Sequence record: OQ873415.1
DNA: 64,000 bases
Direction: 5' to 3' (one strand)
Source: Escherichia phage PECP20
Numbering within the stretch: position 1 is the first letter of the stretch; every line of letters starts with the position of its first letter. A program made the translations under genes and the position numbers. The notes under the pieces are model-generated. The model was given only the letters and a program-made list of their open reading frames with translations. It was not told the origin of the DNA and ran no database searches. Below are positions 4,599 to 58,520 of this stretch, one piece after another.

Positions 4599-5252
4599 TT
4601 AATACTTACATGATTTGATTGTTTCTATGAACAATTTCTTAGCAGCATTTCCATCGATTTGAAGTATTTTTCGATATGCCTTTAATTTGGTAGAATAATT
4701 TTGCCAGACTAAATTGTCGGTGAGTTCGTCGTGCTTATCTATAATATTCAAGAATGAATCCAACAACAAGAAGGTTTCAAATGAAATTATATTGCTTTGT
4801 AGCAATTTAAATATGTAGCTCGACTGAACTTTATTATTATAATCAAATATCTCTTGAAGCGCACTAACTTCCACTTTCTTACTGAAATAGTAGATGTTAC
4901 GTACATCTTCAGCAAACGTCTCCTTGGCTTGTTTGAGACGTCCAATATATTCCCTATAGAAAACTAATGCATCAGCGTCTGATATCTCACCAATCCACGC
5001 ATCTTGGTTAGCAACTAAGTTACTGATGAATATCAAGGTGAGTTCCTTTAACTTATATTTCTCTGCTAGTTTCTCAAAGAAATATTTATCTCGGCGTTTT
5101 TGATACGCATTATCCGAAACACGCATGCACCAGTTATATTTGATTACGTCATACCGACCATTAAAATGTTGTTTGCACATCAAGTATAGTTTGTATACCG
5201 ATTTTCCGTTAATATAACGTTCTCCGTCAGGAGGCATGCGTATTTTAATCAT
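4599..5252 (-). CDS. 59: Helicase loader gp59
   Basis: 217 aa, identical length to T4 gp59; position between 32 and 33. Confidence 0.85.
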   Translation of the reverse strand: MIKIRMPPDGERYINGKSVYKLYLMCKQHFNGRYDVIKYNWCMRVSDNAYQKRRDKYFFEKLAEKYKLKELTLIFISNLVANQDAWIGEISDADALVFYREYIGRLKQAKETFAEDVRNIYYFSKKVEVSALQEIFDYNNKVQSSYIFKLLQSNIISFETFLLLDSFLNIIDKHDELTDNLVWQNYSTKLKAYRKILQIDGNAAKKLFIETIKSCKY

Positions 5253-5587
5253 AATAAGAAATCTAACGTATTAGTTTTTTCGCCACGAGCAACTGATGGG
5301 CGAAGCATGTTTTCGTCAATTGCTTCGCTTGTAATTTTTTCAACAATTCCTGTAGGAATAAATTTAGCAAATTGTGTTTCTGGAATAGAATTTTCTTCCA
5401 AGAAAGCAGTTGTTGCTTCTAAATAAGACATACCAAATTGTTCAACCATGGATTCGATAATGAATCCGTTTTCTTGGCGGTCAAGCAATTTAGCGATATC
5501 ATCTTTATCGTGTTTTACTGCTAATTCTTGTTCAGATAAACCGGTCTCATCAACCGGTTTAATATCACTTAGTGAAAACTGTGTCAT
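5249..5587 (-). CDS. 33: Late transcription co-activator gp33
   Basis: 112 aa (T4 gp33 is 112 aa); acidic; ATGA overlap with gene 59. Confidence 0.8.
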   Translation of the reverse strand: MTQFSLSDIKPVDETGLSEQELAVKHDKDDIAKLLDRQENGFIIESMVEQFGMSYLEATTAFLEENSIPETQFAKFIPTGIVEKITSEAIDENMLRPSVARGEKTNTLDFLL

Positions 5588-27870: not shown

Positions 27871-28971
27871 TTACGCTGTGAAGATTTTATCCCACATCGC
27901 AACAACTGCATCTCGGTTATACTTCTTCCATACGGCTTCAGCACGTTTAACTCGAGCTTCGTATGTGTCAGTGAATTCTAATACAGCTTTTGTGTAAAGC
28001 GCAACTACTTCTTTCTTAGGAGTAGAGGAATCAATTTCTACACGCACAGTATCTGGGTCATATTCGAATGTCGCGTGCGGATAATCCTTAAAAACTAACT
28101 GAATCACAGGGACACCTTTAGAGATGGCTTCAATAGAACTATTCTCTACCGTACCCGTGTCAGGACACGTATTGATAAGTGCTTTAGCTGTTTTAAGACG
28201 TTCCATGATTTCACTGTGTGGAGCATCAATAATAACAGGATACTTAGCCGGTGGTGCCCATTTACTAGGACAGTATCCTGCACCATTTTCGCCTAGTGCT
28301 TTAATCGCTTCAAGAGCAACATCAGTACGACGCATTTTAGTGTCATAACGTTGTGCACTAATAATCAGATCAGTCGCCGGAAGAACTTCAGGTTTCTCAT
28401 TCAAACAAATAACCGGATAATCTTCGGCTTCAAACAACGGATTTGCTCGCCAATAATCATAATCAATTTTGTCAGTCAGACCTGAAGTCATATAACAATA
28501 TTTGCGTTCAAATTCACGGAAGGCTTTAGTAGGAGCATAACTCTTACCACCGTTCTTATGAATTTGAATAGTCTGGTCCCAAATTTGAACAATACCACGA
28601 GATACCGGTTCAAATGGTGTTGCCATAAAATTCTTATGAACTTTAGAGAGACCTGCGTCTTTAATTGCCTGAACGGTTAGTTTGGTCGGTTCCATTGTAA
28701 CAACGAAATCGTACTCATTAATGCCGGCTAGTTCAACAATCTTACGAGCCATAGTATAACTCATACCTAGACTGAATTTAGTCAGATGACCAACAGGATG
28801 ATGATTAACCTTCCAATCACCAAATGTGTCATTATCAAAACCGATATAATCAATATCGGCACCGATAGAAACTAAATATTTCAACACATTTAAATGTACT
28901 GCTTCAAGACCACCTTGTACACGTTCAGGATTAAATGGGACTGCACGAGATGGGATAAACATAACTTTCAT
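27871..28971 (-). CDS. putative GT-B fold glycosyltransferase (candidate DNA hmC sugar transferase)
   Basis: 366 aa; C-terminal donor-binding motif PDTGTVENSSIEAISKGVPVI matching the E-x7-E / EAxxxGxPVI signature of GT-B (GT4-like) enzymes; occupies the gene 60/mobA slot of T4. Confidence 0.6.
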   Translation of the reverse strand: MKVMFIPSRAVPFNPERVQGGLEAVHLNVLKYLVSIGADIDYIGFDNDTFGDWKVNHHPVGHLTKFSLGMSYTMARKIVELAGINEYDFVVTMEPTKLTVQAIKDAGLSKVHKNFMATPFEPVSRGIVQIWDQTIQIHKNGGKSYAPTKAFREFERKYCYMTSGLTDKIDYDYWRANPLFEAEDYPVICLNEKPEVLPATDLIISAQRYDTKMRRTDVALEAIKALGENGAGYCPSKWAPPAKYPVIIDAPHSEIMERLKTAKALINTCPDTGTVENSSIEAISKGVPVIQLVFKDYPHATFEYDPDTVRVEIDSSTPKKEVVALYTKAVLEFTDTYEARVKRAEAVWKKYNRDAVVAMWDKIFTA

Positions 28972-46161: not shown

Positions 46162-47604
46162 TTAAAATTTTAACTCATTGGCTAAGCTATCTAGGTCAGC
46201 ACGTGTTGCTTTGGCTTTACCTACGCGTTCCGTACGATTCACCTCTGCCTGACGCATCTGAGCACCTGCGTTTTCATTTACCGTGTTAGGTGTGTTCATG
46301 CCTTCTTGCTCAATCTCAACCCATTTCTGATTGCCTTTACGTACACCCATCAAGAACTTGTTCCACTTATTCTTATCACCGTATCGTGATTTGATTTGTT
46401 TGATAAGTTGTTGTTCAGCTTGTGCAAGTTCTTCGGTTTCAATTACAGCCAACATGAAATCTGCCGTTGCTGGTAAACCTGCTGATTCTGCGATATCACT
46501 CATGTTCATGTCTGAAGCATCCCATGCTGCACGTCCTACTTGAGCTGCAGTCCATAGAACTGTTTCAGATTCTACTGCTAATGCACGAAGTTCTTCTGCG
46601 ATAGCTTTAACTAATGTGTAGCTATTTTCAGTGTAAACTCTGATACGACAAGACCCACAAATACCTAAGTAATCGACTATGATTACAGACGGCACAAAGT
46701 TCTTCTTGAGTTTCAATTCATTAAGCAATGCACGGAATGTATTAGCATTAGCTCCACCAGTAGGATACTGTTTGACTACTAAACGTCCTAATGTTGATTT
46801 TGAACGCCATTTTTCCATCTTGGCTTTATATTCAGCATAAGATACATTACCATCATCGATATCATCGAGTGATACGTCAAGCATGTTTGCATCTATACGC
46901 TTAGCACAAACTTCTTCAGCCATTTCCATGGAAATATAAAGAACATTATGTCCTGTTTGAAGATAATCTGCAGCAAGTGAACAAAGGCCTAAAGATTTAC
47001 CAACGTTAACACCAGCCATTAAAACGTTCAGTGTACCTGTTTCTGCACCGCCTTTGGTGATTTTATTCAAAATGTTTAATTTGAACGGGACCTTACGTGC
47101 TTTATTTAGATAAGAAAGCCAGCGTGCTTCATAGTCTTCCATCCAGTCATGACCAACATAACTATCAAACGAAATTGAAAGTGCTTGACGCATAATATCA
47201 GGAATAGCTCCTACGTCAGGCATTTTCTTGTTACGTTGTTCTGGAGGTAGTTCAGCATTAGACTGAATCTCAATGATTTTGGATGTAGCATTATACATCG
47301 CTTTTTGCTGGACATATTTCTCAGTTTCTTTAACCAACCATTCGTGGTCTTCAGGAGTATCAGCCAATTTTTCAATTAGGTCCGAAGTTCCTTTATATTC
47401 GGCTTCAGTTAAAGAACTGTTATCTAAAGCCACCTTTAATGCATTGATAGATGGCATTGCATTATATTCGTTAACGTGGCTCTTTATAATTTTAAAGACA
47501 TTTTTTGCCGGTCCACGCTCAAAATACTCAGAATCCATATAAGGCCAGACCTTAGAAAAATAAGCCTGGTCATATACTAGATGAGACAAAATAATTTCTA
47601 CCAC
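46162..47604 (-). CDS. 41: Replicative DNA helicase gp41 (DnaB family)
   Basis: 480 aa (T4 gp41 475 aa); Walker A GVNVGKS, RecA-like core. Confidence 0.9.
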   Translation of the reverse strand: MVEIILSHLVYDQAYFSKVWPYMDSEYFERGPAKNVFKIIKSHVNEYNAMPSINALKVALDNSSLTEAEYKGTSDLIEKLADTPEDHEWLVKETEKYVQQKAMYNATSKIIEIQSNAELPPEQRNKKMPDVGAIPDIMRQALSISFDSYVGHDWMEDYEARWLSYLNKARKVPFKLNILNKITKGGAETGTLNVLMAGVNVGKSLGLCSLAADYLQTGHNVLYISMEMAEEVCAKRIDANMLDVSLDDIDDGNVSYAEYKAKMEKWRSKSTLGRLVVKQYPTGGANANTFRALLNELKLKKNFVPSVIIVDYLGICGSCRIRVYTENSYTLVKAIAEELRALAVESETVLWTAAQVGRAAWDASDMNMSDIAESAGLPATADFMLAVIETEELAQAEQQLIKQIKSRYGDKNKWNKFLMGVRKGNQKWVEIEQEGMNTPNTVNENAGAQMRQAEVNRTERVGKAKATRADLDSLANELKF

Positions 47605-47613
47605 GATAACTCC

Positions 47614-47955
47614 TTAAAAGAATTTAAATTTTTTCTTGGTCCGTTCATTAAAAGCTTGTTGTACTTGCATTGTAACACATTTTTCAACATGTGGTGCAAG
47701 TTCTGCTTTTCTGTCCTGGTCAAGAACTGCAAAGTCCATTACGATTTTACCATCAACCCAGTCTAGTTTTGTAATATAGACTATATGATGAGAACCATCT
47801 TCAAGTGTAATCAGAATCTCTTGAATGACATTTTCCATTGCTGAACGGATAATTTTAAGAGATTCATTAAACACTCGTTCTTTGCGAATGTCTTCCCCTT
47901 CCGAAGAAGGGGATTCATCAACGATTTCTAGATTTAAATCATCGAGATTATTCAT
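47614..47955 (-). CDS. 40: gp40-like head assembly protein (by position)
   Basis: Internal ATG at 47955 gives 113 aa (T4 gp40 ~114 aa); lies between uvsX and 41. Confidence 0.5.
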   Translation of the reverse strand: MNNLDDLNLEIVDESPSSEGEDIRKERVFNESLKIIRSAMENVIQEILITLEDGSHHIVYITKLDWVDGKIVMDFAVLDQDRKAELAPHVEKCVTMQVQQAFNERTKKKFKFF

Positions 47956-49120
47956 CGAAATCTTCCATTTCGTCAAGGTCGTTTTCAATATCTGCTGCAG
48001 ACGGAGCATCAGAAGCTTTAACCGGAACTTTAGTTGTTGCTTTGCAATTAATAAGGTCGTTAACAGCGTCATCAACTTCTTTAATAGAAGAGATAGCGCC
48101 TAGTTTATATTTAGTTTCAATTGCATCTCGGAAAGGTTTGTGTTTAAACAACGGTCCCCAGAATTCTACACAATCAGTAGCTTTAGCACGCCACGATTTC
48201 TCTTCACGAATCATTTCACCTGTTTCTTCGTCAAGGAATTCACGAGCATACCAACCAGCTTTAGGCTTAACAACAAATCCAATTTCAGTTGCCATTTCTA
48301 ACAAGCCACTGAATGGATCGATACCGCCGTCAAAATTAACCGTGATTGGGAAAGTAGATTTCTCTTTAACTGTACGAGATTTTTCTGCTTTCAACGTGAA
48401 GTCATAACCGGTCAATTCTGTACCTTCTTTAACCTGACGTTTAGAGATAAAGAATACAGTGTTAGCAGAGTAAAGAATACCTGTACCACCACCCATAATC
48501 TCTTTAGGATATAGTCCGCCGATTTCCATTGCTGTATGGTTGATTGCAACACACGGAATATCTTTAATAGTCAGATAAGGAGTCACAATACGGAACAGAG
48601 ATTTAAGTGCCTTAGCACGAGACATATCACCTACGACTTTCTCGTTCAATGCATCTTCGGTTTCTTTCTTAGATGCAGTATTACCGATTGAATCGATAAA
48701 GATAATAACTTTATCACCGCGTTCAATAGCGTCAAGCTGATTAGTCATATCAACTTTAAGTTGTTCTACAGATTGAATCGGAGTATGAACTACACGGTCT
48801 AAATCAACACCCATTGAACGAAAATAAGATTCTGAAGCACCGAATTCCGAGTCATAAAACAAACAGATTGCATCTTTATATTTCTTCATATACGCTGCAA
48901 CCATAGTCAGCCCAAACAATGTTTTAAAGTGTTTAGAAGGAGCAGCAAAAATAGTTAAGCCTGATTGCAATCCTGCATTCAGAGCACCACCTAGTGCGAT
49001 ATTCAACATCGGAATACGAGTAGGGACTTCATCACGATTATTAAACAGCTTAGACTTAGTCAAGTCTGCAGTCATTTTAGAAGTAGAAGCTTTAATCAGA
49101 CGAGATTTTAAATCAGACAT
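47948..49120 (-). CDS. uvsX: Recombinase UvsX (RecA/Rad51 family)
   Basis: 390 aa (T4 UvsX 391 aa); Walker A and acidic C-terminal tail. Confidence 0.9.
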   Translation of the reverse strand: MSDLKSRLIKASTSKMTADLTKSKLFNNRDEVPTRIPMLNIALGGALNAGLQSGLTIFAAPSKHFKTLFGLTMVAAYMKKYKDAICLFYDSEFGASESYFRSMGVDLDRVVHTPIQSVEQLKVDMTNQLDAIERGDKVIIFIDSIGNTASKKETEDALNEKVVGDMSRAKALKSLFRIVTPYLTIKDIPCVAINHTAMEIGGLYPKEIMGGGTGILYSANTVFFISKRQVKEGTELTGYDFTLKAEKSRTVKEKSTFPITVNFDGGIDPFSGLLEMATEIGFVVKPKAGWYAREFLDEETGEMIREEKSWRAKATDCVEFWGPLFKHKPFRDAIETKYKLGAISSIKEVDDAVNDLINCKATTKVPVKASDAPSAADIENDLDEMEDFDE

Positions 49121-49218
49121 TGTATTTTTCCATAGGCATCATTATATTTTACTCATGTTTAAAAGATAAGACGATTATATACTAAGGGTTATACAGCATT
49201 TAAAACTTTAAATGGCTC

Positions 49219-49767
49219 TTAACGAGCCCATTTGATGATTTCTGTAATCAAACCATTACGTTCGCTTGCATTAAATCCTATAATTTTGTTAGCACCATCA
49301 TGATTAAGTAATTGATACGTTTGGATTTTGTTATGAATTGCAAACTCTTCAAAATGTGAAATGACTGTATTAAAACCGAATGAAGACAAAGTAATAAGGT
49401 CGTCTTCAAAACTTTCAGTCATTTCATTACGTGTTAAAATAATTGTGAACACATCATGGTTTTGGCAAAGACGAACATAGTCCTGTTCATAAACATCAAG
49501 AACAGAGTCCGCATCTTGCCGAATACGTCCATAAACCCAGTTACTAATATATCCACGGTCTAACAGATAAATCTTAGTAGGGTCTAAATAATTCAACATC
49601 GTTTCGAAACAGCCAACTTCATTTCGAGACTTAACATCGAAACGTCCATCAACTGTTCGTTTAGGAAAATCAATCTTTACATATCTTTCACTAATTTCCA
49701 TTATGTCATTAATGAAAGTTGTTTTACCAGCATTATCTGGGCCGTCTACTAAAATAATTTTAGCCAT
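49219..49767 (-). CDS. P-loop kinase-like protein (unknown substrate)
   Basis: 182 aa; Walker A GPDNAGKTT at residues 9-17; size and layout of small nucleoside/nucleotide or sugar kinases; not a T4 gene at this locus. Confidence 0.5.
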   Translation of the reverse strand: MAKIILVDGPDNAGKTTFINDIMEISERYVKIDFPKRTVDGRFDVKSRNEVGCFETMLNYLDPTKIYLLDRGYISNWVYGRIRQDADSVLDVYEQDYVRLCQNHDVFTIILTRNEMTESFEDDLITLSSFGFNTVISHFEEFAIHNKIQTYQLLNHDGANKIIGFNASERNGLITEIIKWAR

Positions 49768-49768
49768 T

Positions 49769-50668
49769 TTATTCCTCGATTACGACATCTTCGTATTTAG
49801 GTATATTATATGGTGAAGAAATTAAAGCATTAAAGTAGATGAACTCACCAAGACCTGGATGGAATACTTCTTCAGGATTTTCGAAATATTGAATCTTCGG
49901 GCGTCCTTTAAGAATTTGATAGTACTCAGTTTTAGTTGGTTTAAAAATTCGAATCAGCGCTTCTTCAGGATACTTATTTCTGTCGAAGCTATTATTTGGA
50001 TCGGTTATATAAAGCGGTTGACCTAATTGAATTGCACATTCAACCACTTGTTCAAAACGATAACATGGGTCACTAATTCGAAATGGATGAAAAATACCAT
50101 CTAGATGAATAGGAGCCAAATCACCTACAAGACGCTGCATGATGGAAGGACGTATAACTTTCTGAGTTACGATAATCTTATTACCATCTGCACCTGCGTT
50201 AACCAGCACTTCTTTTTGACGTTCATTCAACACGGTAGTTTGAAGTGAACGATTAACTGACAACATATCGGTTTTTAAGAATTCGTCAATATAAAAACGT
50301 TGTTTATTAGGGTCTGCAGTGATATTGAAATTGAATTCTACATCAAAAGCGCCGCCATAACCAGTGATATCTGTGATTAGAAAATCACAATCATAATAAT
50401 CAATTAATGAATCAACCACAAATTCATTTTCAGTCCAGAAATATTTACGAGTGTTATACGCGTTATCTTTATACCATAATGGAACAAACTTAAATTCTGG
50501 GAAAAGACGTTCGCATTCTTTAATATCAGATGCATTACGTGGATATGTAATCACATCACCCGGATTAGCACGGTGCAAATGAAGTTGGAAGTTGCCATCC
50601 TTAAGGATAGCATACTGTCCAGTTTCATAAGACCGCATACTCAAGATTGGTACGCGGAAAATAGCCAT
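49769..50668 (-). CDS. hypothetical protein occupying T4 beta-gt locus (possible transferase)
   Basis: 299 aa; no confident motif (a DCD tripeptide after a hydrophobic stretch could be a DxD); translationally coupled to flanking genes. Confidence 0.45.
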   Translation of the reverse strand: MAIFRVPILSMRSYETGQYAILKDGNFQLHLHRANPGDVITYPRNASDIKECERLFPEFKFVPLWYKDNAYNTRKYFWTENEFVVDSLIDYYDCDFLITDITGYGGAFDVEFNFNITADPNKQRFYIDEFLKTDMLSVNRSLQTTVLNERQKEVLVNAGADGNKIIVTQKVIRPSIMQRLVGDLAPIHLDGIFHPFRISDPCYRFEQVVECAIQLGQPLYITDPNNSFDRNKYPEEALIRIFKPTKTEYYQILKGRPKIQYFENPEEVFHPGLGEFIYFNALISSPYNIPKYEDVVIEE

Positions 50669-51384
50669 TAGTCAAGGAATCCTTTAACATAATCAAAATC
50701 ACGTTCAAACACATGGGCGCTTACCATGGTATGAGTATAATCACCAACTTCTACACCGCATTCGTTAGCGATATAATGAAGTAATTTTCCTTGGAGATAA
50801 AAATCCAACTGCATAACAACAGCACAGTTCTGAGAACGCATATGACAGTGGGTATAAAGCTTACCATCACGAATATAATAAGTTACTGAGTCAGTACATG
50901 GATATTCAAGTGTTTCGTCCGAATCAAGCAAAGCCTGATCAGAACTTTCTAGAATTTGGAACACAACTCTTCGAGAGTTAGGTTTTTCTTTAAGTTCTTT
51001 TAGAAGAGTTGGTAATTGGGCCGCAATGCGAGGGCCATAGAAAGTGTTGAAGTTCGCCGGCAAAACATCTGATTTTGGTTTAGAAATAAATTTAGCGACA
51101 TTAGGATATGCCTTAAACGCTTCTTCTGCGTTGGTACCACCAGAAATCATAAACTTCCAGAAGTCTTCGGCATATTCATAAGAGATGCGGTTAATACGTG
51201 GGTCGGTCATTTTGAATGATGATGGAGTGTCAACAACTACTGTCATAGACCCAATTTCATTACAACGTCCAATACGAGAATCAGTTACGAATTCGGGGTT
51301 TTCTAAAATTTCACGATTGACTGCTTTAAATGCGGTTTGAAAATCTGCGGCTTTGATATATTTCATTGTGTTATGTTTTCCCAT
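50668..51384 (-). CDS. 42: Thymidylate-synthase-fold pyrimidine hydroxymethylase, gp42-like (dCMP hydroxymethylase)
   Basis: 238 aa; motifs NSRR, PCTDS (catalytic Cys), MRSQN and C-terminal SAHVFERDF parallel T4 gp42 NPDSRRG / MCTNT / MRSND / SLHVYSRHF as recalled. Confidence 0.6.
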   Translation of the reverse strand: MGKHNTMKYIKAADFQTAFKAVNREILENPEFVTDSRIGRCNEIGSMTVVVDTPSSFKMTDPRINRISYEYAEDFWKFMISGGTNAEEAFKAYPNVAKFISKPKSDVLPANFNTFYGPRIAAQLPTLLKELKEKPNSRRVVFQILESSDQALLDSDETLEYPCTDSVTYYIRDGKLYTHCHMRSQNCAVVMQLDFYLQGKLLHYIANECGVEVGDYTHTMVSAHVFERDFDYVKGFLD

Positions 51385-51426
51385 GTTTACCTCAATACAA
51401 TTTATTATATACTCAATTCATAAAGC

Positions 51427-51666
51427 TTATTTGAATTTCTTGACAATGTTGATATAACGTAAAGCTTCAGAATCTATACTTCCAAGAACACTATGAAGGA
51501 ATGCATCAGTGTAGTATTCCAATTGAACAGGTTCTTTAATCACTTTAGCCGCTTTGGTTTCAAACAGGCCCATAAGGGCCTTTTTAAGAATTTGTTCGTT
51601 AGTGTTCAGTTTCATAGTCAAAATCTCTTCGTTAAGTTTATAATTAAAACTTTTTCTAGAAATCAT
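51427..51666 (-). CDS. hypothetical small protein
   Basis: 79-aa ORF, coupled to upstream gene (ATGA-type overlap). Confidence 0.35.
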   Translation of the reverse strand: MISRKSFNYKLNEEILTMKLNTNEQILKKALMGLFETKAAKVIKEPVQLEYYTDAFLHSVLGSIDSEALRYINIVKKFK

Positions 51667-52823
51667 TCCGGGTACCTCAAAGCGTCATCAGAGTTAGTTA
51701 TATCAATAATAGATATGGAGTTTTCTGCTAACCCGTTTTTAGATAATTGACGTTTATAATACCTTTCACAATATGTACACGTTGACCCACAGATTTCATT
51801 AGCACAATCAAAATCTGGATGTCTGAACCACCTTTTTTCTAAAAAGCCATCTAACAAAGAGGTTTCAATATTTACTGTATGTGAAAACTCAGTCTCATTT
51901 TCAAGAGTGAAAATAGTCTCTAAAGGCTTCCACAGTTCTAACAAATTACCTTCAAACTTTTCAGAAGCGTATGCTTCAAGAACTTTCAAAATGTAGTCTG
52001 TGCTACCTGTACGTCCTGAAACTTTGAATTGAGTGATACCAATATCATTATAAAGTTTCAAATCTTGAGGACGAACAAAACGAGTTCTCAACCAGTTAAA
52101 TGGGTCTGTATCACGAGCTTTAATACAGTGCTGCATAGGATATCCATTTAAGGATTTAGCATCATCAGCGGTAACATCAGTACTATGGAAAATATAGCAA
52201 GAGTCACGATAACTACAATGTGTTGTATACCCTTTACCAGCATTAGAACAGAACTCATTTACAAGAACTTCAAATATTATATTGTTCTTATTGCAAAACT
52301 CTGCTGCACGCTTCAGGAAAGAAACTGAACGGTTCTTATGAATTCCGCAACAGACCTTTTTGATGTTATATTGGTCATGTAAGTATTTGATTTGAGTTAC
52401 CGCATCGACATGTAGAATTGTTGAAACTTCAATCTCAATATCTTTATTGACTTCACGAACAATTTCCATAACAACAGGGTTAGCGATAGTAATACGCCAT
52501 ACGCCTATTGACCAAAGATACTGAACATAATCCTGAATAGCTTTCTTCTTCCACTCAACTAGTTCTCTTTTTGAACCAGGATTTATCGTGTTGAGTGTAT
52601 AGTTAAAGCAAATACCTAATTCGTTACAACGTTTAACGTAGTCTTCTAACATCTTTTTGTCAACGTCAGGAAGCCTAAAATCAGGTCTGGCTGCTACAAA
52701 AGCCATTTCTCTTGTAGAGCCATATACTTCGTTTATCAAGCTATTAGGATAGGTTTTATTGAGCTCTACGATTTTATCAAGAAGAGCTAAATCAAAATTC
52801 GTTCCGATTTTAAAAGTATTCAT
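51663..52823 (-). CDS. Cys-rich putative metalloenzyme (possible Fe-S enzyme, U32-like?)
   Basis: 386 aa; many Cys including C-terminal CANEICGSTCTYC (C-x4-C-x3-C-x2-C) and HCSYRDSC resembling the U32 signature CxSYxxxC; assignment speculative. Confidence 0.45.
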   Translation of the reverse strand: MNTFKIGTNFDLALLDKIVELNKTYPNSLINEVYGSTREMAFVAARPDFRLPDVDKKMLEDYVKRCNELGICFNYTLNTINPGSKRELVEWKKKAIQDYVQYLWSIGVWRITIANPVVMEIVREVNKDIEIEVSTILHVDAVTQIKYLHDQYNIKKVCCGIHKNRSVSFLKRAAEFCNKNNIIFEVLVNEFCSNAGKGYTTHCSYRDSCYIFHSTDVTADDAKSLNGYPMQHCIKARDTDPFNWLRTRFVRPQDLKLYNDIGITQFKVSGRTGSTDYILKVLEAYASEKFEGNLLELWKPLETIFTLENETEFSHTVNIETSLLDGFLEKRWFRHPDFDCANEICGSTCTYCERYYKRQLSKNGLAENSISIIDITNSDDALRYPE

Positions 52824-52879
52824 TTTTTTGCATCTCGCGTTAATTGATGCGATGGTTTTTGCAGGTCTTACTTAAATTA

Positions 52880-53281
52880 TTATAGATTTGGTTTATATGA
52901 TTTAAATGTTTCGAATTCGCCTTTATTCATAAGAGCTTTGAATTCGTCAGGACGCATAGCTTTGTCGTCGATAATCCAATCATATACTGGTTTATGTGTT
53001 AGCAAATTATGGTACTTCAAACCAATGTTTTCCAAGTTCTGAATCAGACTTGGGAGAATGTCAATTGCTATACGACCAGGACCTACCGACTTCATACCAC
53101 GGGCAGTGTAAAGCGTTATGGTATGCCCTGCATCATACAGGGCATTAATGGCAGACACCATTTCGACGTCTGGTTTGAAGTTCACGTAATCACGATTGTT
53201 ATTCCACTCTGTTATACAATCATCGACATCAAAACAAAGATTAAGCATGTTTTCTACACGGTGCATTAGATTCGTTCCCAT
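52880..53281 (-). CDS. putative HAD-superfamily phosphatase-like protein
   Basis: 133 aa; N-terminal FDVDDC (DxDx motif I-like) followed by TLYTARG; weak. Confidence 0.4.
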   Translation of the reverse strand: MGTNLMHRVENMLNLCFDVDDCITEWNNNRDYVNFKPDVEMVSAINALYDAGHTITLYTARGMKSVGPGRIAIDILPSLIQNLENIGLKYHNLLTHKPVYDWIIDDKAMRPDEFKALMNKGEFETFKSYKPNL

Positions 53282-54951
53282 TGATGAGTGATATCGCCGC
53301 CGATTGGACGATAGGAAACACCAGTTTCTTTATCAGTTAGTACCCATTTACCAGGATTTTTTGTAATCAGAGTAGCCGTTACAGGTTCTGCTACGTCATA
53401 ACTAATAGAGCCGTCTTGAAGTACACGGCCCATGTTACGTAATTGCTTAGTCAGAAGTTCCATACCTTTATAATATGCGGCAACCGCTTTAAGTGGATTA
53501 TTCTTGAAATAACCACCTAATGCAATCCAGATAATTGCTACTGCCAAATGATGATACTCGTTAAACGAACTCATCTTTCCATATTTGTAAACTAATGGAT
53601 TGATGTTAATAGTCAAATTACAAGTTGTTTCATCAATAGTAAACTGACCCCAGGTCGGATTAGCATTGAATTCATCATAACCTGAAACAGCATAAAGCAC
53701 TTTAGCTTCATCATACAATTTTGGCCCGTAAATCTTGGTTTCACCAAAATATCCACGAGGGTCGATAAACTTGACTTCGCCGTTATCGGTAATCATAGTA
53801 TTACTGAAGTTCGGGTCACCATGAATAACAGAGTACTGTCCCTGAGAACGGTTATGATAACGAATAAGATGTTCTAAAGCTTGTTTCAACATTGGCTTCA
53901 GACGTCCAATCTTAGTGTAGTTCACATGTGTGATTTTACCAAATGAATCAATCAATGGCTGAATGCTTTCACAACGATCAATAACTTTCGTATAGAACTC
54001 TTTAGTGAAATCACGGCGAACAGTTTCAGGACTTACAAAATAAGTGTCCGTGCTGAATTTCAGTGCATCTAAAATTGCATCAACAATTTGTGGACGAGCA
54101 AGACTTGATTTGGATTTAATATATTCAAATGCCGGCTTACCTTTAATACGTTCCATTTCAAAATTATTTTCATTTACCGAAACTAACTGAGGAACTGAAT
54201 CTGATTTCACTTTCAAATACCATGAAATCTCATCTTTTTGAAGAGCTCGACCTTGTTCGGTTAACGCGAATTTAGTTACAGTTTCTTCGCCAATTTCAAC
54301 TGCATTAAAACTACGATTCAGTTCACGAACTTCATGAGCCTTTTCAAGTTTAGGCATATCACCTAAATCAATTAGATTCATAAGCTCTGATTTATTGAAT
54401 GCACTGCCGTAAAGGAATTCTACGAAATCACGACCTTTGCAGTATTCGTGAATTTCCTCATCAGTAGAACCCATGTAGAATTCCCAGTCTTTGAACTGAT
54501 AAATTCCTACAACATTACCACCTGTTGAACCTACGTTAGTGATATTTTCACCATCGAAATTATATCGACATTCATCACCCTTAACATAGATTGCGTTAAC
54601 ATTCCAAGACCATGAACCAAAGTCAGGAATAATATCACACCAGTTAACAATTACGTTATGGCCATCTAAATCTTTGTATAATTTAGCAAGAGCATAAGCA
54701 GAACCATACGCTTCATCAACTGTACGAATAGTCACATTGAACCCTTCTTGCTCGCAATAAGCTCGAACAGTTTCAGCAAATTTTGAATGAACTACTACAA
54801 TAATTTCATCTGCGCCAAGGTCAGAATAAATTGTATACAAATTGCTCAGAATAGTGTCTTGTTTATAGTTAACAAGCACCTTAGGAATATGGTGAGTAAT
54901 TGGATATAAACGAGTTGCTAATCCAGCACCAAGAATAACAGCTTTTTTCAT
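53266..54951 (-). CDS. Bifunctional sugar-1-phosphate nucleotidyltransferase (N-term) / APH-like anomeric sugar kinase (C-term)
   Basis: 561 aa; N-terminal MKKAVILGAGLATRLYPIT (G-x-G-T-R-L nucleotidyltransferase motif); C-terminal VIHGDPNFSNTMITDNGEVKFIDPRGYFG (HxDxxxxN catalytic loop plus IDxR of choline-kinase/APH fold). Confidence 0.6.
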   Translation of the reverse strand: MKKAVILGAGLATRLYPITHHIPKVLVNYKQDTILSNLYTIYSDLGADEIIVVVHSKFAETVRAYCEQEGFNVTIRTVDEAYGSAYALAKLYKDLDGHNVIVNWCDIIPDFGSWSWNVNAIYVKGDECRYNFDGENITNVGSTGGNVVGIYQFKDWEFYMGSTDEEIHEYCKGRDFVEFLYGSAFNKSELMNLIDLGDMPKLEKAHEVRELNRSFNAVEIGEETVTKFALTEQGRALQKDEISWYLKVKSDSVPQLVSVNENNFEMERIKGKPAFEYIKSKSSLARPQIVDAILDALKFSTDTYFVSPETVRRDFTKEFYTKVIDRCESIQPLIDSFGKITHVNYTKIGRLKPMLKQALEHLIRYHNRSQGQYSVIHGDPNFSNTMITDNGEVKFIDPRGYFGETKIYGPKLYDEAKVLYAVSGYDEFNANPTWGQFTIDETTCNLTININPLVYKYGKMSSFNEYHHLAVAIIWIALGGYFKNNPLKAVAAYYKGMELLTKQLRNMGRVLQDGSISYDVAEPVTATLITKNPGKWVLTDKETGVSYRPIGGDITHQWERI

Positions 54952-54992
54952 GTTGAAGTCCTCATTGGTAAGTAGGTGTATTGTACACTATT

Positions 54993-55136
54993 CTAGTTAA
55001 AGCATTCATACTTTGCCTGTAGACCAATCATAATCCATCCAATTACAAGTGTTGGAATCATTACTGGAGCCGTTAAGCCCCAGTAGATAGTCATGGCAAG
55101 CATCAATAGTAAAAGTCCTATTGTTATTGCTTTCAT
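54993..55136 (-). CDS. small hydrophobic protein (47 aa)
   Basis: Hand-translated: MKAITIGLLLLMLAMTIYWGLTAPVMIPTLVIGWIMIGLQAKYECFN; ATG overlaps stop of SIS gene; possible Imm-like membrane peptide. Confidence 0.3.
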   Translation of the reverse strand: MKAITIGLLLLMLAMTIYWGLTAPVMIPTLVIGWIMIGLQAKYECFN

Positions 55137-55768
55137 TGTTCGCCTCGTAACATGGCACCTAGTGCACCACCAGGGTGGAACTTAAGGAAGTCATTAGAGG
55201 TAAATCCACGTTCAGACGAAAGGTTGATAGCAAACGTATCGATAAGCGCTAACAACAATGTAGTGGACATGGTCGGAGCCAGAGAATTCTCATCAACCTC
55301 TACCGCGATGCCTGTACAGAACGTATAATCAAAAAGAGCTTCGTATTCTTGCGGAATGTCAGGGTTACAATGTAACAGAATCTGTTTAACCTGAGGACGA
55401 ATCATACGAAGATGTTTAGCAACACCTATCATTTCTTCAGTCTTACCAGAACGACTGATGTGAACTAATACATCATTAGGTGCAATAAATCCTGCGTCGC
55501 CATGAGAATAATGCCCGGTGTTCAAATACATGCTAGGAATACCTAGTGAAGCAAAAGTCTCGGAAGCTTTAGTTGCGATATTAGCGTTCTTACCAACACC
55601 TGTAATAATTACTCGGCTTTCATAATTACTCAGTCCAGGGCGACGAAGAGTTTCAAGAATAGCATTATATCGGGCAGAGTTTTGACTAATTACTTTAGCC
55701 ATAGTGGCAAGAGATGAAGCTTGTTTTACGATTGCGTCAATAGCGATAGTGATTGGTGTAGTTTTCAT
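55133..55768 (-). CDS. SIS-domain sugar-phosphate isomerase (arabinose-5-phosphate isomerase KdsD/GutQ-like, no CBS domains)
   Basis: 211 aa; ITGVGKNANIA...HGDAGFIAPNDVLVHISRSGKTEE...APTMSTTLLLALIDTF...FLKFHPGGALG parallels the KdsD SIS domain motifs as recalled. Confidence 0.65.
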   Translation of the reverse strand: MKTTPITIAIDAIVKQASSLATMAKVISQNSARYNAILETLRRPGLSNYESRVIITGVGKNANIATKASETFASLGIPSMYLNTGHYSHGDAGFIAPNDVLVHISRSGKTEEMIGVAKHLRMIRPQVKQILLHCNPDIPQEYEALFDYTFCTGIAVEVDENSLAPTMSTTLLLALIDTFAINLSSERGFTSNDFLKFHPGGALGAMLRGEQ

Positions 55769-55808
55769 ATTTCTCTCATTTAATTAGTTTACCGTCCATG
55801 GCATTATA

Positions 55809-58520
55809 TCAAAAATCGAACATATCGAACAGAGATGCTTTCTTCTCGTAATCGAGTTTCGCTGCTGATGTGAATCCTTCAAGTGGTTTAATAAATGTCT
55901 TCTCAAGGAGAACAGTGTAGTCCATCCAATGAAGTACGTCGTCTTTAATTAAATCTGTGATTTCAGTACCAGAAGGCCATGCGATACATTTATCACCGAA
56001 CGGGTTTCCATCACGTAAAGGCAGAACGTATACCTTTTCGCCTTCTACAACTTGTGGAGCATCAATATTACCTTTGATAGCTCTGTTATATGTCAGAATT
56101 CCACGAATATGGAACGGGCATTTAGGACCAGGGAATCCACCAACGTCATATTTAGCAATGTTATTCGCAGAAGATACTGACGCGATGCTAATATAATTCA
56201 ATTGACGGAATTCTTTTTCAAACTCTTTAAAATATTCTTGTAATGATTCTTCACCTTCTTGAAGCATACGACGAATACATTCTTTAAGAGCTTTCTGTAC
56301 TGCTTTAGGGGTCGAAGATTTCTGTGTTTCGAGACCCATGATTTTGAGTTTAGGCTCAGCGTATCTGGTTCCTTCCATATCCCACACGTTTAATGCATAA
56401 CGTTTCTTACCAGTCCAGAATCCACCAATACCTTTAGAACCGAGTGGAGGACCAGCAATAGCTTCTCGGTCCATGAACATCAAATGTTGCTTATTATTCA
56501 TGTATTCACACATTTCACGGAAACCTCTATCAATAGCCGGTTCCATACGTTCACGAGCGAACTTATCTAAGAAGTCTACCCAATGGTTGGTATCACGGAA
56601 TTTAGATTCACCAACCTTATCAATAATTTTATCTGCAGATACGTAAATAGAGTCTGTATCACCATAAAGAACGAAAGCTTCACCTTCTGTACCACAAACT
56701 TCGTTCAGATATTCATTAACTTTACGTTCAATCCACTGTAAAGCCATTTGACCAAATGTTGTGATTGCAGTTGCATTACGCAAATCGTAATAACGGAACC
56801 AAACGTTACCAAGTGCACCATAAAGCGAGTTGATGAGCAATTTACGGTTAATTTGTGCAGTCATACCTGCAACTTCAGTACGTTGAGCTCTAAACAACAT
56901 TTCATTAAGAGATTTAGCAGACAACTTTTTAATCTTTTCTTTAATCTCATCGCTGAAGTCGAAACGATAATCAACATCTAATGGTTCGTCAACAGAAAGA
57001 TTAGGATTATGCAACGCCTCTTTAATTATTTCACCATTACGTTGAGCCGCAAGCATGTAACCTTTATGTTCTTTACGTTGATTAAAGACCTTAGTGATTT
57101 CAGTTGGAACTACACCATCACGGTCTTTATAATACATCATGCCATTAGGAGAACAACTGTACACATCTGAAGGACGTTCAGCGATTGCGTTAATATAATC
57201 ATGCAGTGGAGCTACTTTAAACGTTCCTGCTATTGTTTCCGGGCTAATATTCACTTGGCGAATAATACTTGGATACAGGGATGTAAGGTCGAAACTCATT
57301 ACATATTTGTATCGATTTGGAATAGGTTCCTTAACAAAAGCGCCAGGATAAGGTTGAACCGGGTGAGAACGACCTTGTGGAATCACCTTGTTCTGCTCTT
57401 TAAGGCTATTAAAAATAATAGCATCCCATGTTTTAATTGGGCTAAACACAGATTGAATCTGTATCTTAGCATAATAACCCATGTCCAAACTCAAGTTGAT
57501 GAACTGACGCTTAGCATCAATTTGCAATACACGATACACGTCGATAATGTTATAAGAAATATATCGTTGGTGATTGCTTTCACGAAGCTTAGAAATAGGG
57601 CCGTCATATTTCAGTTTACCAACGTTCAATTCAAATTCTGAAATGTAATCCAGAGAATACGACGGTTGATTGGTAAAAGAGAATTTTTTGTAAAGGTCAA
57701 TGTAATCAAGAACAGAGATACCGAACAATGTAATGATTTCACGAGAACCATACATGTTTTCGATAACTTTAACACGAGTTTTACGATGTGGTGATAAACG
57801 TTTTGCTGTGGATTCACCAAAAATATTCTTGATTCTGTTATACACATATGGAATATCAAATGACTCAACGTTCCATCCAGTCAAAATGACAGGAGTTTTC
57901 TGTTGCCAGAAGTTGAGATATTCCATCAACAATTCTTTTTCGTTATCGAACGGCATATAAATGATTTTATCGATAATTTCGGATGGAACTTCATCACCAC
58001 CTTGTTCTTGAAGCTTAGCAGCGATTTCAATAGACCATTCTTCTACATTACCATATGGAGAATTCAATAGATCAAATACGTAGAACCTGTCGTCAATTGA
58101 GTCATAATGAGTGATAGCATCAATCGGATGTTTTGCTTGTGACGGCTCAGGGAACCCATCCGGAGATGTTACTTCGATGTCGAAGTTAGCCACACGAATT
58201 TTTGTATGGTCGTATTTGATTTCATAGTTATAAGTGTCAGACAAATACGCCAATTTGAAATCGTCCATGCCAAGTGCTTCAAGTCCGATATCTTCCATGC
58301 GTTTAATCCATTGGGAGGCATCACGCATATTAGCGAACAACTTACGAGTACACGGCTTACCGTAGATATCGAAATATTTCGTAGCCTGACTTTCTGGACA
58401 ATGTGCAAACAACGATGGCTTATACTCTACTTCACGAGTACGTTCACGGCCATTAGAATCGATGTAACGTTCAAAAATTGAATCACCAATCTGTTCAACC
58501 GTTAAGTAAAATTCTTTCAT
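55809..58520 (-). CDS. 43: DNA polymerase gp43 (family B, with 3'-5' exonuclease)
   Basis: 903 aa; N-terminus MKEFYLTVEQIGDSIFERYIDSNGRERTREVEYKPSLFAHCPESQATKYFDIYGKPCTRKLF and exo motif NFDIEV match RB69 gp43 as recalled; pol motifs SLYPSII, YGDTDS. Confidence 0.95.
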   Translation of the reverse strand: MKEFYLTVEQIGDSIFERYIDSNGRERTREVEYKPSLFAHCPESQATKYFDIYGKPCTRKLFANMRDASQWIKRMEDIGLEALGMDDFKLAYLSDTYNYEIKYDHTKIRVANFDIEVTSPDGFPEPSQAKHPIDAITHYDSIDDRFYVFDLLNSPYGNVEEWSIEIAAKLQEQGGDEVPSEIIDKIIYMPFDNEKELLMEYLNFWQQKTPVILTGWNVESFDIPYVYNRIKNIFGESTAKRLSPHRKTRVKVIENMYGSREIITLFGISVLDYIDLYKKFSFTNQPSYSLDYISEFELNVGKLKYDGPISKLRESNHQRYISYNIIDVYRVLQIDAKRQFINLSLDMGYYAKIQIQSVFSPIKTWDAIIFNSLKEQNKVIPQGRSHPVQPYPGAFVKEPIPNRYKYVMSFDLTSLYPSIIRQVNISPETIAGTFKVAPLHDYINAIAERPSDVYSCSPNGMMYYKDRDGVVPTEITKVFNQRKEHKGYMLAAQRNGEIIKEALHNPNLSVDEPLDVDYRFDFSDEIKEKIKKLSAKSLNEMLFRAQRTEVAGMTAQINRKLLINSLYGALGNVWFRYYDLRNATAITTFGQMALQWIERKVNEYLNEVCGTEGEAFVLYGDTDSIYVSADKIIDKVGESKFRDTNHWVDFLDKFARERMEPAIDRGFREMCEYMNNKQHLMFMDREAIAGPPLGSKGIGGFWTGKKRYALNVWDMEGTRYAEPKLKIMGLETQKSSTPKAVQKALKECIRRMLQEGEESLQEYFKEFEKEFRQLNYISIASVSSANNIAKYDVGGFPGPKCPFHIRGILTYNRAIKGNIDAPQVVEGEKVYVLPLRDGNPFGDKCIAWPSGTEITDLIKDDVLHWMDYTVLLEKTFIKPLEGFTSAAKLDYEKKASLFDMFDF

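Follow-up and report, generated by a model that had tools for sequence, protein, structure and literature searches.

A predicted glycosyltransferase and a predicted nucleotide kinase occupy the beta-glucosyltransferase slot of an RB69-like phage

What do two genes of Escherichia phage PECP20 do in the slot where phage T4 encodes its beta-glucosyltransferase (beta-gt)? We addressed this question for a 64,000-nucleotide stretch of sequence record OQ873415.1 (hereafter the window), in which open reading frames (ORFs) for proteins of 182 and 299 residues lie next to each other at positions 49219-50668. The original prediction, made from the sequence, proposed that one of them may be the missing transferase, or a kinase whose substrate is a modified nucleotide or sugar, in a setting of 5-hydroxymethylcytosine (hmC) DNA. 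We conclude, with a probability of roughly 0.78, that both genes and the adjoining thymidylate synthase (TS) homologue form the three-gene core of a pathway that replaces cytosine by glycosylated 5-hydroxycytosine, the 299-residue protein being the predicted first transferase and the 182-residue protein a predicted deoxynucleoside monophosphate (dNMP) kinase. The putative roles of both genes are already in print for their phage RB69 counterparts, gp46:47 and gp45. In a large group of T4-like phages, among them many that serve in therapy or have been proposed for it, arabinosylated 5-hydroxycytosine gives protection against restriction enzymes and against CRISPR systems that target DNA, and the pair represents the least characterised core steps of the arabinosyl-5-hydroxycytosine pathway.

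Both ORFs were confirmed. They lie on the minus strand, which holds all genes across 44-58.5 kb, and the smaller of them starts MAKIILVDGPDNAGKTT. The core genes and the landmarks on either side are as follows.

47948-49120, minus strand: uvsX, an ORF listed as a RecA-like recombination protein in the identical phage record; landmark flanking the slot.
49219-49767, minus strand: 182-residue thymidylate-kinase-like P-loop kinase, equivalent to RB69 gp45; predicted dNMP kinase for 5-substituted deoxycytidine monophosphate (dCMP).
49769-50668, minus strand: 299-residue compact glycosyltransferase of the GT-B fold, equivalent to RB69 gp46:47; predicted first, base-proximal arabinofuranosyltransferase on 5-hydroxycytosine.
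50668-51384, minus strand: 238-residue TS homologue, a predicted flavin-dependent 5-hydroxy-dCMP synthase from its PDB match and the residue at ThyA position 169; equivalent to RB69 gp48.
55809-58520, minus strand: gene 43, an ORF that the identical phage record lists as DNA polymerase; landmark flanking the cluster opposite uvsX.

Read in the direction of transcription, the genes are gene 43, SIS isomerase, a 47-residue ORF, the 561-residue protein, HAD, U32, a 79-residue ORF, the TS homologue, the 299-residue protein, the 182-residue protein, uvsX, gene 40 and gene 41. The pair thus lies upstream of uvsX and not downstream of it, as had been stated. When this order, 43-[sugar genes]-TS homologue-299 aa-182 aa-uvsX-40-41, is set against that of T4, 43-imm.1-imm-42-beta-gt-segA-uvsX-40-41, the pair falls in the beta-gt/segA position, and the proposed slot is therefore upheld. 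The three core genes abut: one base is common to the stop codon of the TS homologue and the ATG of the 299-residue ORF (gacTAATGgct, a TAATG junction), and a single base separates the stop codon of the 299-residue ORF from the ATG of the 182-residue ORF, just in front of which stands GAGGAA. The proposed coupling of the pair to the gene before it agrees with this one-base overlap and one-base gap, but that gene had been taken for a hydroxymethylase and is better described as a 5-hydroxy-dCMP synthase.

Several features of the TS homologue bear on this description. It is ~97% identical to the proteins of PDB entries 9IQC, 9IR2 and 9IQU (E 2.9e-160) and 98.7% identical to RB69p048; the RB69 enzyme, gp48, binds flavin and has been shown to act as a 5-hydroxy-dCMP synthase (PMC13326640). 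It has N at the position of E. coli ThyA residue 169 and D at that of residue 177 (MRSQN...QLD), a D169N signature, whereas T4 gp42 has D at both; the residue at 169 is the criterion that Lee et al. use for 5-hydroxy-dCMP synthases (PMC13326640). Judged by sequence, the neighbour is a predicted 5-hydroxy-dCMP synthase and no hydroxymethylase. Given such an enzyme, whose type yields 5-hydroxy-dCMP and, as end product, arabinosyl-5-hydroxycytosine (PMC13326640), the predicted DNA base in this phage is arabinosyl-5-hydroxycytosine instead of glucosyl-hmC. Since the adjacent enzyme makes 5-hydroxy-dCMP, the hmC DNA on which the pair was to be assayed is the wrong substrate.

The window is Mosigvirus (RB69-like). 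Over bases 49100-51400 it matches Escherichia phage CAU_ECP01 at 100% identity and ~150 further phages of E. coli and Shigella at 98-99%. The 182-residue protein is 98.4% identical to RB69p045, and the 299-residue protein corresponds to RB69p047 (residues 1-181, 96.7%) followed by RB69p046 (residues 184-299, 100%). What is one intact ORF here is split in the RB69 record, which has 901 bases against 900 in the window with a single gap, the extra base dividing gp46:47; this fits the published account, in which RB69 genes 46 and 47 are one ORF broken by a sequencing error (PMC13326640). The pair is orthologous to gp45 and gp46:47 of the RB69-type arabinosyl-5-hydroxycytosine cluster (RB69 gp45-gp55; the Afh genes of phage HY126), of which the window also has the 5-hydroxy-type TS homologue, the uridine diphosphate (UDP)-arabinofuranose genes (52880-55768) and the second transferase (27871-28971).

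Thomas et al. (2018) described, between the polymerase gene and uvsX, a module of eight genes that lack homologues in T4, and proposed that part of it makes UDP-arabinose (PMC6024577). Lee et al. (2026) found mono- and poly-arabinosylated 5-hydroxycytosine, with an ether link at C5 and no hydroxymethyl group, in the DNA of RB69 and of Acinetobacter phage DLP3 (PMC13326640). Mono- and di-arabinosyl-deoxycytidine were confirmed in another Mosigvirus by a study of the Durham collection (PMC13390438), and arabinosyl-5-hydroxycytosine has been shown by LC-MS (mass spectrometry coupled to liquid chromatography) and nuclear magnetic resonance in RB69 and in Mosigvirus phage NP (PMC13326640, PMC13390438). 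Lee et al. label RB69 gp45 a 'nucleotide kinase' and gp46:47 'arabinosyltransferase 1' (PMC13326640). The closest relatives of the 182-residue protein are RB69 gp45, DLP3 gp78 and RL38J1 gp214, all carrying the former label, and those of the 299-residue protein are RB69 gp46:47, DLP3 gp79 and, by synteny, Thanatos TH1_063, carrying the latter (PMC13326640). Public labels for these genes are inconsistent and partly wrong: several records call the 299-residue protein 'RNA polymerase binding protein', while the hydroxylase goes under thymidylate synthase or dCMP hydroxymethylase and the 79-residue ORF under 'P-loop containing nucleoside triphosphate hydrolase'. For genome annotation, the present assignments correct the labels 'RNA polymerase binding protein', 'thymidylate kinase' and 'dCMP hydroxymethylase'.

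The 299-residue protein had been described as lacking a clear motif, and it gave no sequence match in Pfam, NCBIfam or the PDB, whether searched as a single sequence or as a 46-sequence profile. Fold comparison alone was informative. The protein folds as a GT-B glycosyltransferase, with two Rossmann-like domains and an interdomain cleft, in line with the suggestion of a missing transferase. Its best fold matches are retaining enzymes of the GT4 type (sucrose-phosphate synthase 6KIH, BshA 6N1X and PimA 2GEJ; 7-11% identity), and a published table is thereby reproduced independently. It is ~60-100 residues shorter than these enzymes, has no Pfam Glycos_transf_1 or Glyco_trans_4 match, and its family profile finds no solved glycosyltransferase. 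The GT4-type matches fit the alpha linkage proposed for the base-proximal arabinose (PMC13326640), and the enzyme is presumably retaining. Residues R197, K246 and H270-P271-G272 are invariant in the C-terminal half of the family, the domain in which GT-B enzymes have the Arg/Lys that binds the donor diphosphate and the Glu that binds its ribose; a donor-site role for any of them would be conjectural. The family is small and mostly viral, with 227 of 1.84 billion cluster representatives matching at E <=0.001, and its named members are all 'hypothetical' phage proteins. In the mono-arabinosylated phage Thanatos, a transferase of the 299-residue type is the only one encoded (PMC13326640).

We considered whether the protein could be a relative of beta-gt that had stayed in place, since T4 beta-gt occupies the same slot, immediately behind the gene-42-type enzyme and ahead of uvsX. 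T4 beta-gt also belongs to the broad GT-B fold class. This candidate was rejected, as no homology was detected between the two (BLASTP E 3.8; hhalign probability 0.09%), and T4 beta-gt was not among the 60 matches of the fold comparison. Comparison of the 299-residue family with the window's own second transferase gave no relationship either (hhalign probability 0.8%).

A number of observations weigh against the proposed enzyme identities. Sequence kinship of the 299-residue protein to any glycosyltransferase family went undetected in Pfam, NCBIfam, PDB and profile searches; its putative assignment as a transferase comes from the fold; and we found no published demonstration of either the transferase or the kinase activity. 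Furthermore, the 300-residue Thanatos protein TH1_063, encoded beside that phage's TS homologue, has been reported to have UDP-xylose pyrophosphorylase activity (PMC12838424). If the same held here, the 299-residue protein would be a UDP-pentose pyrophosphorylase that activates the sugar instead of transferring it. The report describes purified TH1_063 converting uridine triphosphate and xylose-1-phosphate to UDP-xylose, as detected by LC-MS (PMC12838424), but it is a single assay with a surrogate sugar. The fold is GT-B and no nucleotidyltransferase fold, the cluster already contains an NTP_transferase domain that is assigned as the UDP-arabinose pyrophosphorylase in HY126 (PMC13326640), and the 299-residue family also occurs in non-arabinose systems, adjoining the hydroxylase. 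We consider a pyrophosphorylase role improbable.

The 182-residue protein was correctly recognised as Walker-A kinase-like. Its invariant residues include G9, D11, N12, G14, K15 and T16 of the GPDNAGKT P-loop, F34-P35-K36 and D70-R71, and its motifs are those of thymidylate kinases: a P-loop of the form GxDxxGKT, FPKR, and a DR motif, which is followed by G72 where thymidylate kinases have Y, H or F. Thymidylate and mononucleotide kinases are its top fold matches, those of vaccinia (2V54) and S. aureus (4DWJ) among them; in a profile alignment its P-loop and FPKR match the vaccinia enzyme, and it belongs to the PHROGs 'thymidylate kinase' family (E 5.6e-45). It is nevertheless ~20-30 residues shorter than these kinases and falls below the family cut-offs, with no PF02223 match and a TIGR00041 score of 16.4 bits against a cut-off of 83.25. 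Only the P-loop aligned in an hhalign comparison with E. coli Tmk, an alignment that does not extend to the base pocket, where cytosine or thymine would be recognised. The T4 gp1-type kinase, RB69 gp159, is a phage P-loop dNMP kinase like the one predicted here, and it turns 5-hydroxy-dCMP into the diphosphate in vitro (PMC13326640).

Because these motifs and this fold are features of dNMP kinases, a sugar substrate is unlikely, and the evidence points to a deoxynucleotide. The nucleotide half of the earlier guess about the kinase is thereby retained and the sugar half dropped. A sugar kinase was also rejected on the ground that the cluster's sugar kinase is the C-terminal half of the 561-residue protein (PMC13326640). 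A third possibility was suggested by its being a small P-loop kinase in a DNA-modification cluster: it might phosphorylate the modified base within DNA, activating it for substitution. Thymidine-hypermodifying phages have 5-hydroxymethyluracil DNA kinases that activate the base in this way. However, in O-glycosylation it is the donor and not the acceptor that has to be activated, the P-loop aspartate, FPKR and DR are typical of mononucleotide kinases, and its best structural matches are mononucleotide kinases. We rate such a role as very improbable.

The distribution of the two genes provides a further line of evidence. Searches by tblastn found homologues of the 299-residue protein in 350 phage records and of the 182-residue protein in 343, and both genes are therefore real. 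Records grouped by the first word of the phage name gave the following counts.

Escherichia: 176 records for the 299-residue protein, 176 for the 182-residue protein.
Acinetobacter: 57 for the 299-residue protein, 57 for the 182-residue protein.
Klebsiella: 26 for the 299-residue protein, 25 for the 182-residue protein.
Shigella: 15 for the 299-residue protein, 15 for the 182-residue protein.

Homologues in phages with ordinary glucosyl-hmC, unlinked to sugar genes, would have spoken for a different role, and none was found in the syntenic T4 bases 1-50000, where neither protein had a match even at E 10. The hit counts are too small to include the T4 genus, and it is from them that we infer absence from the rest of T4. 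The TS homologues encoded just upstream of 299-residue relatives agree with this picture: ThyA position 169 is N in 54 of 55 and S in the remaining one, residues of the 5-hydroxy type, against D in T4 gp42.

We scanned gene order in 53 related loci, all of them containing the whole transferase gene with 1.5 kb or more on either side. The TS homologue lies immediately upstream of the transferase in 44 of the 53, at gaps of -13 to +10 nucleotides, and within 1.2 kb upstream in four more. The kinase follows the transferase immediately in 34, usually with an overlap of 4-13 nucleotides, and in most other loci it is found elsewhere in the cluster. In the Straboviridae the gp45-type kinase stands beside the transferase, and in some genera on the other side of the hydroxylase gene, the Dhakavirus order being kinase-hydroxylase-transferase. 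Only two loci had no kinase within the sequence examined.

These figures also bear on whether the 182-residue protein is an ordinary thymidine monophosphate (dTMP) kinase, or a general auxiliary gene of nucleotide metabolism, unrelated to base modification. Public records label it 'thymidylate kinase' and its closest folds are dTMP kinases, yet its records span the same genera as those of the transferase, in near-equal numbers (343 and 350), and it belongs to the same cluster in 51 of 53 loci, where it is sometimes fused to the transferase. With no homologue found in T4 bases 1-50000 and a TIGR00041 score far below the family cut-off, we regard this explanation as unlikely.

No arabinose-type activation gene lies nearby in 20 of the 53 loci, those of the Pootjesviridae among them. 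The ORF after the transferase in the Pootjesviridae has a thymidylate-kinase-type P-loop, EGLDRTGKD, and in phages related to these the 5-hydroxycytosine bears galactose and glucose (PMC13326640); at one locus an ORF resembling UDP-galactopyranose mutase adjoins the transferase. As the core persists in the 20 loci without arabinose genes nearby, it follows the 5-hydroxy base and not the sugar. Hydroxylase, transferase and kinase are therefore a conserved, overlapping core that accompanies this base, whatever the sugar.

Gene fusions among distant members of the transferase family further connect the two proteins. Seven cluster representatives (P0241, P0256, P0263, P0265, P0272, P0283 and P0287) have the transferase followed by a thymidylate-kinase-like domain with an EGFDRIGKD-type P-loop, and P0260 has the reverse order, kinase then transferase. 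Two transferase/kinase fusions were re-read from their contigs as single ORFs. In seven others (P0165, P0176, P0177, P0180, P0197, P0206 and P0246) an N-terminal HAD-like domain (DFDGIF ... GDDxYD) precedes the transferase domain. The transferase is thus joined to a domain of the nucleotide branch or to a HAD-type domain, possibly of the sugar branch, as expected of an enzyme that joins sugar to base. The single-chain transferase/kinase-like fusions are tied to loci L064-L068, several of which are metagenomic. At L052 (5452-7107) a HAD-transferase fusion lies between the hydroxylase and arabinose isomerase genes; neither a separate HAD gene nor a kinase turned up at this locus.

The remaining genes of the window that enter the pathway, or lie within the cluster, are listed here.

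51427-51666, minus strand: 79-residue protein inside the cluster, equivalent to RB69 gp49; PHROG 8601 (unknown function), present in only some related loci.
51663-52823, minus strand: 386-residue protein of the Peptidase_U32 family (Pfam PF01136, E 7.3e-11), equivalent to RB69 gp50.
52880-53281, minus strand: 133-residue HAD-type phosphatase of UDP-arabinofuranose synthesis, equivalent to RB69 gp51 and HY126 AfhF; PHROG 1238, role from PMC13326640.
53266-54951, minus strand: 561-residue bifunctional sugar kinase and nucleotidyltransferase that makes UDP-arabinofuranose, equivalent to RB69 gp52:53 and HY126 AfhE; role from PMC13326640 and PMC6024577.
55133-55768, minus strand: 211-residue SIS-domain arabinose-5-phosphate isomerase, equivalent to RB69 gp55; Pfam SIS E 9.6e-10, PHROG 5670 E 2.1e-116.
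27871-28971, minus strand: 366-residue second DNA arabinosyltransferase, equivalent to RB69 gp3 (Aat), ~21 kb from the pair; PDB match, role from PMC13326640.

The 561-residue protein has a Pfam NTP_transferase domain at residues 3-99 and weak kinase-family matches at 308-409. The 366-residue protein had no match in a Pfam search and matches the 'phage HY126 glycosyltransferase' of PDB entries 9IQZ and 9IR0 over its full length (E 2.6e-248).

We are now able to propose a sequence of steps. The TS homologue (50668-51384) would hydroxylate dCMP to 5-hydroxy-dCMP with flavin and O2, a reaction already demonstrated for near-identical proteins. Production of UDP-arabinofuranose is the work of the isomerase, the bifunctional enzyme and the phosphatase (PMC13326640), and here the upstream SIS, 561-residue and HAD genes would supply it as donor. 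From this donor the 299-residue GT-B, GT4-like enzyme would move the first, alpha-linked arabinofuranose onto the 5-hydroxyl, and the 182-residue thymidylate-kinase-like enzyme would push the modified deoxycytidine mononucleotide toward the triphosphate. Later arabinoses are added on DNA (PMC13326640), and according to the literature the second transferase (27871-28971) would add the second of them there.

When the first sugar is attached is a separate matter, on which two orders of the same enzymes compete. We lean slightly, at just under even odds, towards attachment at the level of the free nucleotide, with hydroxylase, transferase and kinase all acting on the mononucleotide. In its full form, which we put forward tentatively, the 299-residue enzyme would arabinosylate free 5-hydroxy-dCMP, only the 182-residue kinase could phosphorylate the bulky arabinosyl-dCMP, and the polymerase would incorporate a ready-glycosylated deoxycytidine triphosphate. 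Alternatively, the order may be that of T4 alpha-gt and beta-gt on hmC: the 182-residue kinase would phosphorylate 5-hydroxy-dCMP, the polymerase would incorporate 5-hydroxy-deoxycytidine triphosphate, and the 299-residue enzyme would arabinosylate duplex DNA by base flipping. This order is a serious possibility, although we rate it somewhat below even. It draws support from the slot shared with T4 beta-gt, from the addition of later arabinoses at the DNA level (PMC13326640), and from the incorporation of 5-hydroxy-deoxycytidine into the DNA of E. coli expressing RB69 gp48 and gp159 (PMC13326640), a result that equally tells against modification of the free nucleotide.

Attachment to the free nucleotide is favoured for five reasons. 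The DLP3 transferases, tested individually, gave no product on 5-hydroxycytosine DNA, although the authors cannot tell nucleotide from DNA as the substrate (PMC13326640). RB69 gp159, the gp1-type kinase, already handles 5-hydroxy-dCMP (PMC13326640), so that a second kinase needs a reason. The genes for hydroxylase, transferase and kinase are tightly coupled and overlapping, and transferase-kinase fusions occur in both orders. Finally, the 299-residue family is strongly acidic, with a median isoelectric point of 5.2 against 9.05 for T4 beta-gt. Against this preference, T4 alpha-gt is acidic too, which makes the isoelectric point a weak test of DNA binding, and the fusions prove a shared pathway, not consecutive steps. 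Moreover, all characterised phage DNA glycosylations that we know of are post-replicative, and a pre-replicative pathway, if true, would to our knowledge be the first.

5-Hydroxycytosine is a mutagenic lesion and a substrate of base-excision repair, and a pre-replicative route, if true, would keep the naked base out of phage DNA. Knowledge of the stage of first-sugar addition and of the substrate of the kinase would settle the way to reconstitute the pathway in vitro. The same answers would show whether glycosylated deoxynucleoside triphosphates can be enzymatically made and polymerised, and would reveal the steps open to sensing by host defences. The stage of first-sugar addition is the question to which the fusions described here, and the core of three genes that is independent of the sugar, are relevant.

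The U32-family protein offers a side lead. It is 99.2% identical to RB69p050, and ten of its cysteines are invariant, a C-terminal CX4CX3CX2C group among them. Peptidase_U32 proteins include RlhA, which is required for 5-hydroxycytidine in 23S rRNA, TrhP, which is linked to 5-hydroxyuridine in tRNA, and UbiU and UbiV, hydroxylases that are O2-independent (PMC5727448, PMC6599085, PMC6747719). At seven metagenomic loci (L053, L055, L057 and L065-L068) a kinase and a transferase, separate or fused, lie beside or near a U32 gene, and no TS homologue is present in the sequence examined. Given this kinship and these loci, the 386-residue protein may serve as an alternative C5 hydroxylase that does without oxygen. 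In the 2026 NAR paper it figures only as a 'sugar or heterocycle reductase', and U32 goes unmentioned there. The U32 gene is absent from all loci of Acinetobacter and Pseudomonas phages, whose hosts are strict aerobes (L003, L026, L027, L030, L031, L047 and L049 compared), and present in most phages of enteric hosts (L006-L013, L019-L024, L028 and L029), the Dhakavirus-type E. coli phages being without it. This distribution fits an anaerobic role and does not prove one.

Some loci showed additional neighbours. At L065 (5555-7662) and L066 (57-2164), which have a kinase-transferase fusion and U32 and no TS homologue, a dCMP deaminase gene directly precedes the fusion; as pure speculation, the modified base there might derive from deoxyuridine monophosphate, giving glycosylated 5-hydroxyuracil. 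In the distant metagenomic, T4-like locus L038, a Flavodoxin_2-type, flavin-reductase-like ORF (4790-5293; Pfam E 1.7e-16) lies just upstream of the hydroxylase-transferase-kinase trio, which would suit a flavin-dependent hydroxylase. An ORF of L046 (4792-5286) is placed in the same way, the Pfam scan having covered the L038 ORF only.

Within the window, a generic promoter and terminator scan of 47500-56000 was uninformative, returning fewer promoter-like sites than shuffled sequence and terminators at chance number. Each short intergenic region, 49121-49218 before uvsX and 51385-51426 before the hydroxylase gene, contains a TATATAAT-like element; in front of uvsX this element is preceded, ~12 bases upstream, by aaaTGCTgta, an arrangement similar to a T4 middle promoter.

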